In this document: positions 1,557 to 15,442 of the stretch, one piece after another
Layout of the letters: every line of letters begins with the position of its first letter
How positions within the stretch are numbered: position 1 is the stretch's first letter
NCBI RefSeq assembly: GCF_000010625.1
Contig: NC_010296.1
Location: 4,800,001-4,832,000, forward strand
DNA: 32,000 nucleotides
Origin: Microcystis aeruginosa NIES-843
Lineage (GTDB): Bacteria; Cyanobacteriota; Cyanobacteriia; Cyanobacteriales; Microcystaceae
Reading direction: 5' to 3'
The notes under the pieces: generated by a model
Database searches by the model: none
The model's input: the letters and a program-made list of their open reading frames with translations, nothing else
Told to the model about the DNA's origin: nothing
Made by a program: the position numbers and the translations under genes

Positions 1557-3263
<1,707 letters not shown>

Positions 3264-3488
3264 AATCTAGGGATCAGCTATCAGTTTTTATCGGGGAATT
3301 TTTTGACCTGCTGACCACTGATAGCTCCTCCTTAATTAGGGTTTGCTGAATAAATCTAAAAACCTTGTGTATAAGACTTTTAGACTTTTTGGTTTCCAAA
3401 AAGTACCAGATATGGGAGTGATCGGGGGGAAAATTCAGGTACTTTTTCCCTGAAAATTGGGTAATTGACCCCCTCAAAATCAGTAAAA

Positions 3489-3554
3489 CCCTACACCCTA
3501 CACCCTACACCCTACACCCTGCCCCCAGGAAAAACTTTTTCAGCAGACCCTAAT
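3489..3554. repeat. Heptamer array (CCCTACA x4) plus a conserved 36-38 nt tail CCCTGCCCCCAGGAAAAACTTTTTCAGCAGACCCTAAT
   Basis: The tandem heptamers are visible. The tail recurs at 6099-6137 with 2-3 mismatches, there preceded by CCCCACA x3. Confidence 0.7.
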
Positions 3555-3960
3555 TACTTCCAGTAATTGCCCTGTGGTACAATTTCTGAATTCCCGTGAC
3601 TAATTTATCTAACATCGATCGATGGCTATCATGAGTCGGATCGAAACTCTGCACTTTGGTTAATAATTTCGCTTCCTGTATATCCACGTCGTCATCGCTA
3701 TAGATTAAAGTGCTAATCGATGTTAGTAGATCTTGATAGATTTCTGGACTAGGATTATCGCCTAAATAGGACTCTAACCATCGATAACATTCACTGGTTT
3801 TAACTGGTTTTAGTTCCGATAATAGTGGTTTTATCTCCGGATCATCATCAAGTTTTTCCCTCACAGCTACCTGTCGTAAATAATTTCTTTCTGATGGTTG
3901 AATGACACCATCAATCCAAGCAACACCGATGAGAATTTTCAGTAATTGTTTATTTTTCAT
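3550..3960 (-). CDS. TerB-like (tellurite-resistance TerB fold) small protein
   Basis: The N-terminal pattern LKILIGVAWIDGVIQPSERNYL matches the TerB-type 'hhhhhhh-DG-h---E' signature. The gene overlaps the rsmB stop by 11 nt, which suggests an operon. Confidence 0.55.
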   Translation of the reverse strand: MKNKQLLKILIGVAWIDGVIQPSERNYLRQVAVREKLDDDPEIKPLLSELKPVKTSECYRWLESYLGDNPSPEIYQDLLTSISTLIYSDDDVDIQEAKLLTKVQSFDPTHDSHRSMLDKLVTGIQKLYHRAITGSN

Positions 3961-9875: not shown

Positions 9876-10997
9876 ATGGCGACCAATTTTTATCATATTG
9901 GAGGCAGCGTCCCCCTAAATGCACCTAGTTATATCAAGCGGGAAGCAGATGATATATTTTATGACTATCTAAAAAATGGACAGTATTGCTATGTGTTAAA
10001 TTCCCGTCAGATGGGAAAATCAAGTTTGTGGGTACAGACACAAAAACGACTGCAAGAGGATAATATTGATTGTGCTACCATTGATTTGAGTGGTATAGGA
10101 AAAAACATCTCCGAAGATATTTGGTATCGAGTATTATTTGAGCAACTGGTTAAACGATTTGATCTTTCTATTCGGGGAAAAGAGCAAACTTGGTGGGATG
10201 AACGAGCCTATAAATCAGCTATTAATCGTCTTGATCAATTTGTTGAGGACATTCTCTTAAAGGAGGTATCCCGACCTATTGTTATCTGTTTTGATGAAAT
10301 TGATAGCGTTCTGAGTTTAAAATTTTCCACAGATGATTTCTTTGCTTGGCTGCGTAGCTGTCATGAAAAACGTCCTCATAATAGGGATTACCAACGTCTA
10401 ACCTTTTGTATGTTGGGGGTAGCGGCAGTTTATAACTTTATTCTAGATAATAATCGTAGTCCTTTTAATATTGGTCAAGATATTCGATTATCTGGATTTA
10501 CTATAAGGGATGCCAGAAAACTTGCCGAGGGATTGCAGGACAAAGTTCCCAATCCACAAGGGGTTTTAGAGGAGGTTATAGACTGGACAGGTGGACAACC
10601 ATTTTTAACTCAAAAAATTTGTCGTTTAATCTCCACATCTCGCCCTGAATTTGGCAAGGAATCCCCAGCAAACCCGATTAATGTCGGCGATTTTATCCAG
10701 TCGCAAGTAATTAGTAACTGGGTATCTCAAGATAGTCCAGAACACCTAAAAACTATTCGGAATCGTTTATTAAATAAGCGTGTCACGGGTAGAAGAATGC
10801 TGAAGCTTTACCTAGAAATTTTAAGAAATGGTGAAATTACCGATGATGGTAGTCTTGATCAAATAGAATTACGCTTAACGGGATTGGTAGTTGAAGACCG
10901 ACAAAAGTTAAAAGTTTATAATAAGATTTATAGAAATGTTTTTAATGAAACTTGGGTGACAACCGATGAACGACCTGGCCACAATTTTTGGAATTGA
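9876..10997 (+). CDS. Stand-alone AAA-like (AAA_35-type, STAND-like) NTPase, a paralogue of the upstream gene
   Basis: Motifs YIKREADD...LNSRQMGKSSL (Walker A), VICFDEIDSV (Walker B), SPFNIG and GGQPFLTQ are present. The C-terminal LRLTGLVVEDRQKLKVYNKIYRNVFNETWV is typical of this family. It aligns motif-for-motif with 8443-9699. Confidence 0.8.
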   Translation: MATNFYHIGGSVPLNAPSYIKREADDIFYDYLKNGQYCYVLNSRQMGKSSLWVQTQKRLQEDNIDCATIDLSGIGKNISEDIWYRVLFEQLVKRFDLSIRGKEQTWWDERAYKSAINRLDQFVEDILLKEVSRPIVICFDEIDSVLSLKFSTDDFFAWLRSCHEKRPHNRDYQRLTFCMLGVAAVYNFILDNNRSPFNIGQDIRLSGFTIRDARKLAEGLQDKVPNPQGVLEEVIDWTGGQPFLTQKICRLISTSRPEFGKESPANPINVGDFIQSQVISNWVSQDSPEHLKTIRNRLLNKRVTGRRMLKLYLEILRNGEITDDGSLDQIELRLTGLVVEDRQKLKVYNKIYRNVFNETWVTTDERPGHNFWN

Positions 10998-12564: not shown

Positions 12565-12764
12565 CGTTTCTCTCCTTTGAATCTATATCGCAAATACAGG
12601 TCAATTACTTAATGATCATAATCAAAATTTCCAGATTGAGCTAGGCTTTTTCTGTGATCCGTGAGGGGGTTGGGTGTTGGGGAGTGGGGGACAGCCAAAG
12701 GAATGACATTTCTAGATAGATAGATCATAATTGAATTAATTGGCTAATTTAAGCTTATTTTTCC

Positions 12765-13265
12765 ATGGCTACTGACGAATTACAAAACCTCGAAGACAAT
12801 ATTCAACGCTTAAAACAACAATTAGCGGGAATCCGCGATGCGTGGACAGGTGCGCGTCCAGAAGATAAAGTTCTTTTGCAGCAACGCATAAACGATAAGC
12901 GCATAGAAATTAAAGAATTGGAACGAGAAAAATGGGATTTAATCGCCAGCGAGAGTCAAGAAGCATCTTTTCCTGATGCCGAGGTAATGGTAGCAGAAAT
13001 TGTCACAGAATTGACGGCAATTACCAAAGAACCACCCTCAGAACTTGCTTCTGCACAAATCTTAGAATTATTAAATCAAATTCTGGCTAAACTCAATCAA
13101 CCAGAGCGATCGGCAGCAGCCAAATTAAAAGCGGCCATATCTACTATACCCCCTTTTGTTTCCCTGACCTACGAAGCGGAATTAGATACTGAGTCAACTT
13201 TTAAGCGTTATTTTCCCACATTTAATCGTGCGATCGCAGGAGTGAAAAATCGTCTAAAAAAGTAA
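12765..13265 (+). CDS. Uncharacterised 166-aa coiled-coil/helical protein, candidate N-terminal module of the downstream STAND NTPase
   Basis: The N-terminus is heptad-rich (LQNLEDNIQRLKQQLAGI...RINDKRIEIKELEREKW), followed by an acidic linker and a helical C-terminal half. The ORF ends ...CTA AAA AAG TAA, 23 nt before the NB-ARC ORF. Confidence 0.6.
   Translation: MATDELQNLEDNIQRLKQQLAGIRDAWTGARPEDKVLLQQRINDKRIEIKELEREKWDLIASESQEASFPDAEVMVAEIVTELTAITKEPPSELASAQILELLNQILAKLNQPERSAAAKLKAAISTIPPFVSLTYEAELDTESTFKRYFPTFNRAIAGVKNRLKK
13256..13262 (+). promoter_or_regulatory. Candidate -1 ribosomal frameshift heptamer A_AAA_AAG, or alternatively an A6 indel hot spot
   Basis: The zero-frame codons are cta AAA AAG taa. 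The -1 frame (aaa aaa gta agt att ccc tct atc cct agt aat GTG) has no stop and is the frame of ORF 13289-15442. An SD-like AGGAG lies at 13238-13242. Confidence 0.35.
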
Positions 13266-13288
13266 GTATTCCCTCTATCCCTAGTAAT

Positions 13289-15442
13289 GTGGGCAAAAGT
13301 ACGGTTAATTTTGTCGGGAGGGAAGATGAGTTAACCTTAATTCATCAGAAATTGCAAACAGAACAAGGGGTGATTGTTTGCGCGGTGGAAGGGTTAGGGG
13401 GAATAGGAAAAACCGCTTTAGCTTTGGAATATGCGAAACGATACCAACAGGAATACGCGGCACAATATTGGTTATCCTTGCGACTATCGGGTTTAGCAGA
13501 AGAAATAGTTAAATTAGCCGCTCCCTATCTATCTTTACCAGAAATATTGAAAAAAGAATCTTTAGAAAAACAAGTGTACTGGTATTGGCAAAATTGGCTA
13601 CCTCAGCAGGGAAAATTATTATTAATTCTCGATGATGTCCCCAATATCGACAGAATTCCCGATCGAATGTTACCAAAAGATTCTAGGATTAAGATATTAG
13701 TCACCACTAGGGAAAGGTGTCTTAGTACGGAATTTGAGTCTATAGCTTTAGATGTTTTACCCTTAGATAAATGTGTGGAATTATTAACCAAAATTGTTGG
13801 TACTGCTAAAGTTGAGCAAGAAAAAGCTTTAGTAGAACAGATCTGTCACGAAATTTTAGGACGCTTAACCTTAGCAGTGGAGTTAGTGGGGGAATATTTA
13901 GCGAAAAATCGTCATTTAAAGTTTAGCCATTTACGCGATAAATTAAATTTAGCTCATACTGCTTTAACCAAGGAAAGAAACCACAGAGATTATGGACATT
14001 TAGGGGTAGCAGCCGCAATTAAAATCAGTTGGGATGATTTAAGTTCTGCTGTTCAAAAAGTGGCAATACTGTTGAGTTTATTCGCACCAGTGGCTATTGC
14101 TTGGACGTTGCTAGAAGATACGGCAAAATCCACGGAAATTACCGAAAGCGAACTAGAAGAAGCGCGGGGACAATTGGATAATTCTCATCTGATGCAACCC
14201 GTGGATGAGGACTATTCTTTTTATCGGATTCATCCCCTCGTGAGAGAATTTTTTCAACAGCAATTACAGGAAATTCCTAAGATAAATTCTCTTTATCGAT
14301 GCGCTTTTGTGGAAACTTTGTTAACCATTGCCGAAAATATCCCGCAAACCCCCACAAGGGAGATTATTGCAGCAGTAACTCCCGCAATTCCCCATCTGCA
14401 ACTTGTCAGTCAAACCATGTTAGATGATATTCCCAACCTGGAAGATAATTTAATTCAGGTGTTTCTTGGGGTAGCTTTGTTTTATAAGGGACAGGGAGAA
14501 TATGATTTAGCAGCAGTTCCCTTAACAAAATGTTGTGAAGAAATCCAATCTCGCTTAGGAGAAAACAATCTCTATTTTGCTAGCAGTCTCAATAATTTAG
14601 CACTATTATACAAACCCCAAGGCAGATACGCAGAAGCGGAACCCTTGTATAAGCGCTCCCTTTCTCTGATAAAACAGCTATTAGGAGAAAACCATCCTAG
14701 TGTTGCTACCAGTGTCAATAATTTAGCACTCTTATATCAATGCCAAGGCAGATACACAGAAGCAGAATCGTTGTATAAGCACTCCCTTTCTCTAAGGGAA
14801 CAACTATTAGGAGAAAACCATCTCGATGTTGCACAAAGTCTCAATAATTTAGTAGTGCTATACGAATACCAAGGCAGATACGCAGAAGCGGAACCCTTAT
14901 GTAAGAGATGCCTTTCTCTGATAGAACAGCTATTAGGAGAAAACAATCTCTATTTTGCTACCATTCTCAATAATTTAGCGGAATTATACCGCTTCCAAGG
15001 CAGATACGCAGAAGCGGAACCCTTGTCTAAGAGATGCCTTTCTCTGAAAGAACAGCTATTAGGAGAAAACCATCCCGATGTTGCACAAAGTCTCAATAAT
15101 TTAGCTTTTTTGTACCAATGCCAAGGCAAATACGCAGAAGCGGAACTGTTGTATAAGCGCTCCCTTTCTCTGCGGGAACAGCGATTAGGAGAAAACCATC
15201 CTAGTGTTGCTAAAAGTCTCAATAATTTAGCGGTATTATACGAATCCCAAGGCAGATACGCAGAAGCGGAACCGTTGTATGTGAGAGCTATTGCTATTTA
15301 TCAAGAAAGATTAGGAGAAAATCATCCCCATACCCAAAAAGTAAGGCAAAATTTTATGATTCTGTTGTCGCGATTATCCGATGAAGAATTACAGCAAAGA
15401 TTCCCCGATGAGATAGTTAATCTCTTAAAAAGTATCAGGTAG
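13289..15442 (+). CDS. NB-ARC (STAND, NLR-like) NTPase with C-terminal TPR array and no N-terminal effector domain
   Basis: It has a GTG start, with the P-loop beginning at about residue 33 (GLGGIGKTALA). Other motifs are Walker B LLLILDDV, KILVTTRE, a degenerate GLPL (LGRLTLAV), and IHPLV at the MHD position. Seven 42-aa kinesin-light-chain-type TPR units follow. Confidence 0.9.
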   Translation: MGKSTVNFVGREDELTLIHQKLQTEQGVIVCAVEGLGGIGKTALALEYAKRYQQEYAAQYWLSLRLSGLAEEIVKLAAPYLSLPEILKKESLEKQVYWYWQNWLPQQGKLLLILDDVPNIDRIPDRMLPKDSRIKILVTTRERCLSTEFESIALDVLPLDKCVELLTKIVGTAKVEQEKALVEQICHEILGRLTLAVELVGEYLAKNRHLKFSHLRDKLNLAHTALTKERNHRDYGHLGVAAAIKISWDDLSSAVQKVAILLSLFAPVAIAWTLLEDTAKSTEITESELEEARGQLDNSHLMQPVDEDYSFYRIHPLVREFFQQQLQEIPKINSLYRCAFVETLLTIAENIPQTPTREIIAAVTPAIPHLQLVSQTMLDDIPNLEDNLIQVFLGVALFYKGQGEYDLAAVPLTKCCEEIQSRLGENNLYFASSLNNLALLYKPQGRYAEAEPLYKRSLSLIKQLLGENHPSVATSVNNLALLYQCQGRYTEAESLYKHSLSLREQLLGENHLDVAQSLNNLVVLYEYQGRYAEAEPLCKRCLSLIEQLLGENNLYFATILNNLAELYRFQGRYAEAEPLSKRCLSLKEQLLGENHPDVAQSLNNLAFLYQCQGKYAEAELLYKRSLSLREQRLGENHPSVAKSLNNLAVLYESQGRYAEAEPLYVRAIAIYQERLGENHPHTQKVRQNFMILLSRLSDEELQQRFPDEIVNLLKSIR
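14591..15346 (+). repeat. Six tandem 126-bp units encoding near-identical 42-aa TPR repeats, with a degenerate seventh at 14465-14590
   Basis: AATAATTTAG recurs exactly every 126 nt (14591, 14717, 14843, 14969, 15095, 15221). Long identical nucleotide blocks such as GGCAGATACGCAGAAGCGGAACCC recur. Confidence 0.92.

Follow-up and report, generated by a model that had tools for sequence, protein, structure and literature searches.

A putative programmed −1 frameshift couples a small helical protein to an NB-ARC/TPR receptor in Microcystis aeruginosa, with the junction conserved among distant relatives

In this study, we analysed a 32,000-nucleotide (nt) stretch of the Microcystis aeruginosa NIES-843 genome (contig NC_010296.1, positions 4,800,001 to 4,832,000; hereafter, the window) and the junction between two adjacent open reading frames (ORFs) on its forward strand, which are probably expressed as a single recoded gene. 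The upstream ORF, here called X (12765..13265), encodes a protein of 166 amino acids (aa) ending in GVKNRLKK, the product of standard decoding. The downstream ORF (13289..15442) encodes an NLR-like STAND NTPase with NB-ARC and TPR domains, 717 aa long when counted from a GTG codon at 13289. Preceded by aat cgt, the end codons of X read cta (13254-56), AAA (13257-59), AAG (13260-62) and TAA (13263-65). The slippery heptamer A_AAA_AAG at 13256..13262 therefore stands in the X_XXY_YYZ phase relative to the zero frame, and the TAA at 13263..13265, which ends the 166-aa product, abuts it. A Shine-Dalgarno (SD)-like AGGAG (13238..13242) is separated from the heptamer by 13 nt and could act as a −1 stimulator. 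The −1 frame has no stop from 13226 to the stop codon at 15440-15442 and reads KKVSIPSIPSNVGKSTVNFVGRE... into the NB-ARC/TPR ORF. It overlaps the zero frame over 40 nt, the heptamer lies inside this overlap, and the earliest canonical start in the −1 frame in the window is GTG 13289. The linker VSIPSIPSN (13262..13288) would be read only after a −1 shift and contributes to a conserved (I/P/V)P-x-N-(L/V) motif located ahead of the GTG and spanning it. A −1 slip is predicted to give a product of 892 aa (166 + 726), of which the receptor ORF forms residues 176-892. An earlier note on this DNA had called attention to the in-phase heptamer at the end of the 166-aa ORF, to the stop-free −1 frame shared with an NB-ARC ORF that otherwise needs GTG 13289, to the AGGAG 13 nt upstream and to a fusion of about 892 aa; each of these features was confirmed.

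The heptamer by itself is unremarkable in this AT-rich window. AAAAAAG is present in 21 copies on both strands, compared with 18.2 ± 4.5 in shuffled sequences, and because it is so common the motif alone is no evidence of recoding. Its weight comes from its phase, from its position in the 40-nt overlap and, above all, from its conservation in relatives.

A search for X homologues gave 251 matches, the best 120 of which show 75-97% identity and are almost all from Microcystis. These best 120 of the 251 are 130-166 aa long, the full-length ones end in NRLKK, and none of them, which include over 100 protein clusters from Microcystis, is joined to a receptor. At the DNA level, 27 Microcystis-type loci were compared, 20 of which carry the junction. 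The sequence CTAAAAAAGTAAGTA, comprising the heptamer and the TAA, is identical in all 20, and no A7, single-ORF or tract-length variant was found in the 21 Microcystis junction sequences (window included). The Microcystis loci without the junction are truncated or disrupted copies from which heptamer and receptor are gone.

Fourteen distant X lineages with DNA were also compared, in which X is only 30-50% identical to that of the window. A slippery site in the matching phase is present at the end of X in 13 of the 14. Ten lineages have A_AAA_AAG in phase (L028, L029, L031, L033, L035, L036, L037, L039, L040, and L043), L042 reads ccG GGA AAA TAA, which provides the alternative canonical heptamer G_GGA_AAA, and L038 and L044 have A9 runs at the end of X. 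Among the 11 aligned heptamer lineages, the zero-frame stop is immediate in eight and one codon further on in three. The codon preceding the heptamer is CTA, GCA, TTA, GAA, or CGA; these encode four amino acids, and the third position is A throughout. An alignment anchored on the site showed 92-100% conservation of the seven heptamer bases versus 30-50% for the flanks. Judged from this comparison, site and phase are conserved in the homologues beyond what the protein sequence would demand.

In all 13 lineages with a slippery site, the −1 frame leads into a large protein, and where a contig extends as far as the stop, the downstream ORF remains uninterrupted over 390-740 codons. The −1 partner is an NB-ARC protein in L028, L031, L033, and L036, an NPHP3_N/AAA_16 protein in L029, an AAA_16-TPR protein in L035 and L040, a NACHT protein in L037 and L043, an nSTAND1 protein in L039 and an nSTAND4 protein in L038. 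The partner in L042 is an unclassified P-loop ATPase with the motif GLRRMGKT, identified from the translation without a Pfam scan. In L044, the partner has a transmembrane segment plus an FGE-sulfatase domain, so the recoding junction is not limited to NTPase partners. Across the broad X family, the alignments thus show that the site and its phase are kept and that the −1 frame continues, whatever large protein follows. The sole exception is L041, in which X forms the C-terminus of another protein, has no −1 ORF and ends gcG AAA AAG TGA; this lineage is a small negative control, in that the slippery first A is lost where the −1 partner is absent. P0150 (L036 645-1268), which looks like an X-NB-ARC fragment encoded by one ORF, was considered as a natural in-frame junction and rejected, as it has an extra 1-nt indel ~20 codons upstream; the true X frame of L036 still ends tta AAA AAG tcg TAG, with the site intact. 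The indel, which is found in one Logan contig, reflects either an error of assembly or a genuine suppressor-like mutation.

The distribution of start codons also bears on how the downstream proteins are made. L028, L029, L031, and L037 have no ATG, GTG, or TTG for 44 to 65 codons past the heptamer, and their receptor motifs (P-x-N-L ... FVGRE/FIGRQ) lie upstream of the first start; in L028 and L031, the gene callers began the receptor at a Met inside the P-loop. The P-x-N-L-type motif is also present in the −1 frame of L028, L031, L033, and L036, and the position matching the window GTG is the Leu codon of this motif in all four. The window GTG is therefore not a conserved start.

To describe possible stimulators, we folded the 80 nt past the heptamer in each lineage and calculated z-scores. 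Hairpins of unrelated sequences were predicted 2-6 nt past the heptamer in L031 (z −4.1), L037 (−3.9), L039 (−3.5), L042 (−2.5), and L033 (−2.1). The predicted fold in L029 (z −2.2) is long-range, and no significant downstream fold was found in L028, L035, L040, and L043. We considered whether the hairpins of the relatives could be intrinsic terminators and rejected this, as no T-run follows them and they are located inside the −1 ORF. In the window, L028, L029, and L036, the heptamer is preceded at 13-14 nt by a GGAG-like element, in differing amino-acid contexts. Larsen et al. reportedly described in 1994 the spacing at which the SD-like element of dnaX stimulates the −1 shift, and 13-14 nt is said to fall in that range.

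The Microcystis loci with the junction fall into three allele types. In type B (the window, L002-4, L008-10, L013, L014, L019, and L021), the −1 frame runs directly into NB-ARC. In type A (L001, L007, L011, L012, L016-18, and L020), it adds 32 residues, VSIPSKSLA[GS]I[ED]RTINISQSGIGNTQNNIFNL, and then stops; read from the heptamer, this tail is KKVSIPSKSLA..RTINISQSGIGNTQNNIFNL followed by the stop codon. After the tail come a RelB/ParE-like pair and then a 751-aa NLR with its own ATG, MKINIEQDGTDNNQNNTFNL...AVPSNVGKST. The Q/N-rich motifs of the type-A −1 tail and of the NLR N-terminus match each other, and the tail resembles, by eye and not by HMM score, the BASS3 (RHIM-like) pairs in Table S2 of Dyrka et al. 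(2020, bioRxiv 10.1101/2020.01.06.895854). The tail contains no ATG or GTG, and its sole TTG reads TTT in L011, which leaves no usable start there; if translated, the tail must come via the frameshift. SLAGIER/SLASIDR and TINISQSGIGNTQNNIFNL would be the type-A peptides from the trans-frame tail. In type C (L015), the junction reads KKVSIPSKSLASIDRTINISQ joined to AVPSNVGKST.

Types B and C are independent deletions of type A with differing breakpoints, at 'CT' and 'GTCAA' microhomologies. In the window allele, both BASS3 motifs are deleted and X is joined directly to the receptor in the −1 frame. Both deletions keep the tail frame in-frame with the NLR, for which the chance probability is 1 in 9. 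The agreement of the two deletions is suggestive but not decisive.

Most members of the X family are free proteins. A profile search of 1.84 billion representative proteins returned 198 clusters, mostly of free ~165-aa proteins, with an exact C-terminal KK in 52 of the 150 X clusters listed and in 80 of 113 in a second search. X is furthermore found as the C-terminal part of TIR (P0131), SNF2 (P0129), and DUF8370/8371 (P0137) proteins. Among remote members, it lies in-frame at the N-terminus of large STAND NTPases (P0223, 1315 aa; P0247, 1169 aa), so an X-NTPase fusion is a natural protein architecture. The named sources (Vacuolonema, Chamaesiphon, Tychonema, Microcoleus, Crinalium, and Nostoc) are all cyanobacteria, and X represents an uncharacterised family that appears to be cyanobacterial. 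Its AlphaFold model (pLDDT 86.8) is all-helical; residues 2-29 and 32-64 form a long hairpin, after which come six short helices. Nothing significant was found for X in Pfam, NCBIfam, PADLOC, a PDB sequence profile search, or Foldseek against PDB; Pfam gave no match at E<0.01 and one sub-threshold coiled-coil match. The best Foldseek match, ESCRT-III-like CdvB2 (E=0.18, TM 0.2-0.35), is not significant, and any ESCRT-III-like similarity of the modelled structure is a weak lead.

The receptor ORF matched NB-ARC (PF00931, E=5.5e-18) and TPR_12 (PF13424, E=2.9e-96) in Pfam, and its layout, with a repeat sensor array after the NB-ARC NTPase domain, is that of an NLR-like STAND protein. The TPR repeat array (14555..15280), presumably the sensor part, has a 126-nt period and 5.8 copies that are 81% identical.

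From these comparisons, programmed −1 frameshifting at the X junction is strongly supported, and we consider it highly probable that X and the NB-ARC/TPR ORF constitute one recoded gene. The dnaX-type programmed frameshift put forward in the earlier note gains support from the 20 of 20 Microcystis loci and 13 of 14 distant lineages that keep the site. The comparison of orthologues, set beforehand as a refuting test, turned up no A7 and no continuous ORF, and the split orthologues keep the slippery site. The trivial explanations also raised there (an A6/A7 indel, a pseudogene, phase variation, or a sequencing error) are excluded as far as sequence comparison reaches.

We propose that most ribosomes would terminate at the TAA at 13263, giving free X (166 aa), and that a fraction would slip by −1 on A_AAA_AAG, with two Lys-tRNAs re-pairing on AAA AAA and GTA being read next. 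The slipped ribosomes would make the 892-aa X-NB-ARC-TPR receptor. In type-A alleles, the same slip would make X-BASS3, carrying the motif that matches the N-terminus of the separately encoded NLR. The zero-frame product of some relatives would be an effector-X protein, such as TIR-X in L035, and the minor trans-frame product would always be the sensor-coupled form of X. The frameshift may thereby hold sensor-tethered X at a fixed ratio to a surplus of free X. Oligomerisation of the receptor may then cluster X domains, which would recruit free copies, or nucleate them, by contacts between X domains. This recruitment idea is in line with TIR-X in L035, because the zero-frame product there would be a free effector carrying X. 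In type-B alleles, including that of the window, the tryptic peptide VSIPSIPSNVGK could come only from the trans-frame product. The efficiency of the shift in the Microcystis allele of the window may be low or modest, given that it has only a weak SD-like element 13 nt upstream and no hairpin. The hairpin-bearing sites of L031, L037, and L039 would be expected to shift far more efficiently.

Several observations weigh against this interpretation. GTG 13289 could start a separate 717-aa receptor. KK is kept in L041 without a frameshift partner and is thus partly a family trait, and the distant lineages share ancestry and are not fully independent observations. No significant downstream structure was found in the 80 nt folded in the window (z = +0.42), and the SD-like element reads GGGG, not GGAG, in about half of the Microcystis loci. 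In E. coli, A_AAA_AAG is among the most shift-prone heptamers and shifts at tens of percent with stimulators but at ~0.3% without them (PMC4066793). The background reported for E. coli in the absence of a motif is roughly 0.07%. Purifying selection on the −1 tail was not detectable within Microcystis, where diversity is too low: nucleotide diversity is 0.038 in the tail, compared with 0.045 in the 3' portion of X and 0.027 in the neighbouring intergenic DNA, and the changes in the tail comprise five synonymous and five non-synonymous ones (3 to 1 in the motif core).

Some of these points would suit two ordinary co-transcribed genes, with the receptor made from GTG 13289 or by coupled reinitiation and the heptamer a by-product of KK. 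The GTG is present, position 2 of the NB-ARC profile aligns to residue 12 of the GTG-started ORF, AAAAAAG is frequent in the AT-rich window, KK persists in L041, the window has no hairpin, and the Bell/NLR pairs of Dyrka et al. normally have tiny gaps or overlaps. However, the codon equivalent to the GTG encodes Leu inside the P-x-N-L motif of four lineages, and several lineages are startless for 44 to 65 codons with receptor motifs ahead of the first start. The third-position A in five different codons, the invariant AAA-AAG order, and the alternative heptamer of L042 point to selection at the nucleotide level; the hairpins of the relatives are placed like frameshift stimulators, and the partner is in the −1 frame in 13 of 13 lineages. 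We therefore regard two separately initiated genes as an unlikely explanation. Some receptor without X could also arise from the GTG start; since the NB-ARC profile begins at residue 12, such a receptor would have no N-terminal module.

Transcriptional slippage, in which RNA polymerase adds one A in the A6 run, would yield the identical protein product (..LKKVSIPS..). It is plausible mainly for the A9 lineages L038 and L044, a run length that PMC1088944 appears to describe as slippage-prone in bacteria. Nevertheless, A6 is short for productive slippage, and the run is always phased as X_XXY_YYZ and ended by G, features irrelevant to a polymerase. In addition, GGGAAAA in L042 is no long homopolymer, and the downstream hairpins and upstream SD-like elements are stimulators of ribosomal shifting. 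We infer that the shift is ribosomal rather than transcriptional, and slippage by the polymerase seems quite improbable as the general cause. A fixed frameshift mutation, making the locus a pseudogene or a phase-variable A6/A7 switch that has broken or turned off a single X-NB-ARC gene in this strain, could draw on the in-frame X-NTPases of remote relatives (P0223 and P0247) and the indel-prone nature of homopolymers, but is very improbable and, on the sequence comparison, already close to refuted: no length polymorphism was seen in 21 Microcystis sequences and >100 protein clusters, an identical 'break' would need to have lasted in 13 lineages (X 30-50% identical) with intact downstream ORFs, and the truncated 136/137-aa alleles arose by deletion rather than by a change in the tract.

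Other features of these loci were also recorded. Upstream of X, a promoter-like ATGACA-17-CATAAT (12703..12731, forward strand) was found by a consensus scan alone, which is weak evidence; the same kind of scan, equally weak, found no promoter-like or terminator-like site on the forward strand in the gap between X and the NB-ARC ORF. No tRNA genes were found within the window; a shift-prone tRNA-Lys(UUU) that reads AAG as the sole Lys isoacceptor, with no tRNA-Lys(CUU), would favour the slip. A 373-aa AAA_35 ('AAA-like domain') protein is encoded at 9876-10997, ~1.8 kb upstream of X on the same strand. The stretch that separates them encodes what look, by eye from the translations, like a fragment of an ammonium transporter, a membrane protein of the CPBP type and, on the opposite strand, clpS. 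The 136/137-aa X alleles, which end in PPFVSLLG(R) (L005 4001-4414 and L022-L025), are deletion remnants, and they indicate that the region between clpS and the neighbouring genes is strain-variable; in L005, two tandem ~295-aa paralogous genes lie downstream of the X remnant. Codons ~23-52 of X (window 12830-12920), in the N-terminal coiled-coil, exist in two divergent Microcystis allele classes, IRDAWTGARPEDKVLLQQRINDKRIEIKEL versus KRDxLVTIAPEEQVRIKQQIEDLRRxIRDF. Nucleotide diversity in the X gene is 0.158 in its first third versus ~0.05 elsewhere, and the N-terminal allele classes could reflect a recombination mosaic or diversifying selection. The self-similarity of the TPR array (window 14555-15280) is typical of the fast-evolving sensor domains of NLRs.

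The RelB/ParE-like toxin-antitoxin pair of the type-A alleles (65 + 88 aa) lies at 4658-5125 in L001 and is also present in L007, L011, L012, L016, L017, and L020, and a RelB-like/ParE pair is located directly upstream of X in L028 (292-761). In L035 (1-6918), the TIR-X gene that is connected by the putative frameshift to AAA_16-TPR has an NB-ARC/TPR gene upstream and a gene for a 221-aa TIR protein downstream, and this neighbourhood looks like a clustered conflict or defence island. The A9 run of L044 (3555-4948, Nostoc sp. C057 plasmid p057_E) belongs to an X whose final codons are gcg cta aaa aaa aag TAA (A9G). In L043 (3152-5565, Crinalium epipsammum PCC 9333 plasmid pCRI9333.05, NC_019736.1), no stop interrupts the −1 frame after the heptamer at 3631, and RefSeq records X as a hypothetical protein of reduced length (3230-3643) and its partner as a 'NACHT domain-containing protein' of its own from 3811. 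Judged from the open frame, annotation of this type is probably a systematic mis-annotation of such loci.

The heptamer and its phase at the X junction are the same as those in E. coli dnaX (tau/gamma) and in orfA-orfB of IS3/IS911. As in these systems, an SD-like element lies 10-14 nt upstream in some X lineages and a hairpin a few nt downstream in others, and two products with a shared N-terminus would be made at a set ratio. The proposed arrangement of a short zero-frame product and a long trans-frame fusion resembles IS3/IS911, whereas the shift in dnaX yields the shorter product. Unlike dnaX and IS3, the X junction would serve a bacterial NLR-like receptor module, its zero-frame stop abuts the heptamer, its stimulators vary among lineages (with no hairpin in the window), and its recoding is a prediction from sequence.

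Similarities were also found to systems that couple small domains to receptors. In the Bell/BASS-NLR pairs of Dyrka et al., a small helical protein is likewise encoded directly upstream of an NB-ARC/TPR gene, and a C-terminal motif of the small protein matches the NLR N-terminus, as in the type-A alleles of X. The type-A motif resembles BASS3 pairs such as Pseudanabaena ..QINVDQSGTGNTQTNTFN / EINIGQGGTGNTQNNTFN (Dyrka et al.). Unlike in those pairs, the BASS3 motif of X is out of frame and would be reached only by a −1 shift; a matching motif pair is absent from the window allele and present in type-A alleles (L001, L007, L011, L012, L016, L017, and L020), in the −1 frame of X only. X (166 aa) has no detectable similarity to described domains, among which no Bell profile was compared, and the Microcystis pair listed by those authors belongs to the BASS5 type and lies at another locus (bioRxiv 10.1101/2020.01.06.895854). 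The effector-associated domains (EADs) of NTPase-centred conflict systems are, like X, small helical domains found on STAND NTPase N-termini and in separate proteins, and they act through homotypic contacts (Kaur et al. 2020, PMC7159879). By analogy, the distribution of X as a free protein, on effectors and on NTPase N-termini suggests homotypic recruitment. In contrast to EADs, X matches no Pfam EAD family, and its two copies would come from one gene by recoding rather than from two genes. The predicted 892-aa product shares the layout of helical module, NB-ARC, and TPR with all-in-one NLRs (plant CC-NLRs, fungal HeLo-NLRs, and bacterial Avs/bNACHT); unlike in these, a free N-terminal module would also be released, and the full-length receptor would need a frameshift.

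No earlier description of frameshift-expressed bacterial NLR-like receptors was found in the searchable frameshift surveys and reviews or in the NLR/STAND papers, which covered Antonov 2013, Atkins 2016, Sharma 2014, Kaur 2020, Dyrka 2020, Kibby 2022, a 2025 frameshifting preprint, and a 2026 STAND survey. The recoding mechanism itself is of the classical dnaX/IS3 kind, and its use for NLR-like receptors appears undescribed. A portable connector before many sensors, or its combination with a BASS3 motif, was also not found in that literature.

Tentatively, we suggest that X, the slippery site and the stop may form a family-wide portable recoding connector placed before many unrelated STAND sensors, which would supply tethered and free copies of one death or adaptor module at a set ratio, with free X or TIR-X polymerising on the activated receptor in a manner comparable to ASC or ESCRT-III. 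Microcystis, a single species, may then have switched the coupling of X to its receptor between a covalent frameshift fusion and an amyloid-templated form (a BASS3 tail with a BASS3-NLR). If this speculative reading were true, the locus would be a natural demonstration that covalent and amyloid-templated coupling are interchangeable.

Bacterial NLR-like receptors are a current focus in studies of immunity and regulated cell death, and the frameshift proposed here is open to direct test with simple reporters and existing Microcystis proteomes. If it is real, genome annotation of such loci is systematically wrong, giving a 'hypothetical protein' and an N-terminally truncated NACHT/NB-ARC gene in place of one recoded gene. 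Three known modes of effector-sensor coupling, by fusion, by amyloid motif and by homotypic adaptor domain, are linked by the Microcystis alleles of a single locus, which lends itself to comparison among strains. A real frameshift would also provide a built-in stoichiometry between the receptor and its free N-terminal module, which would bear on how these receptors signal.

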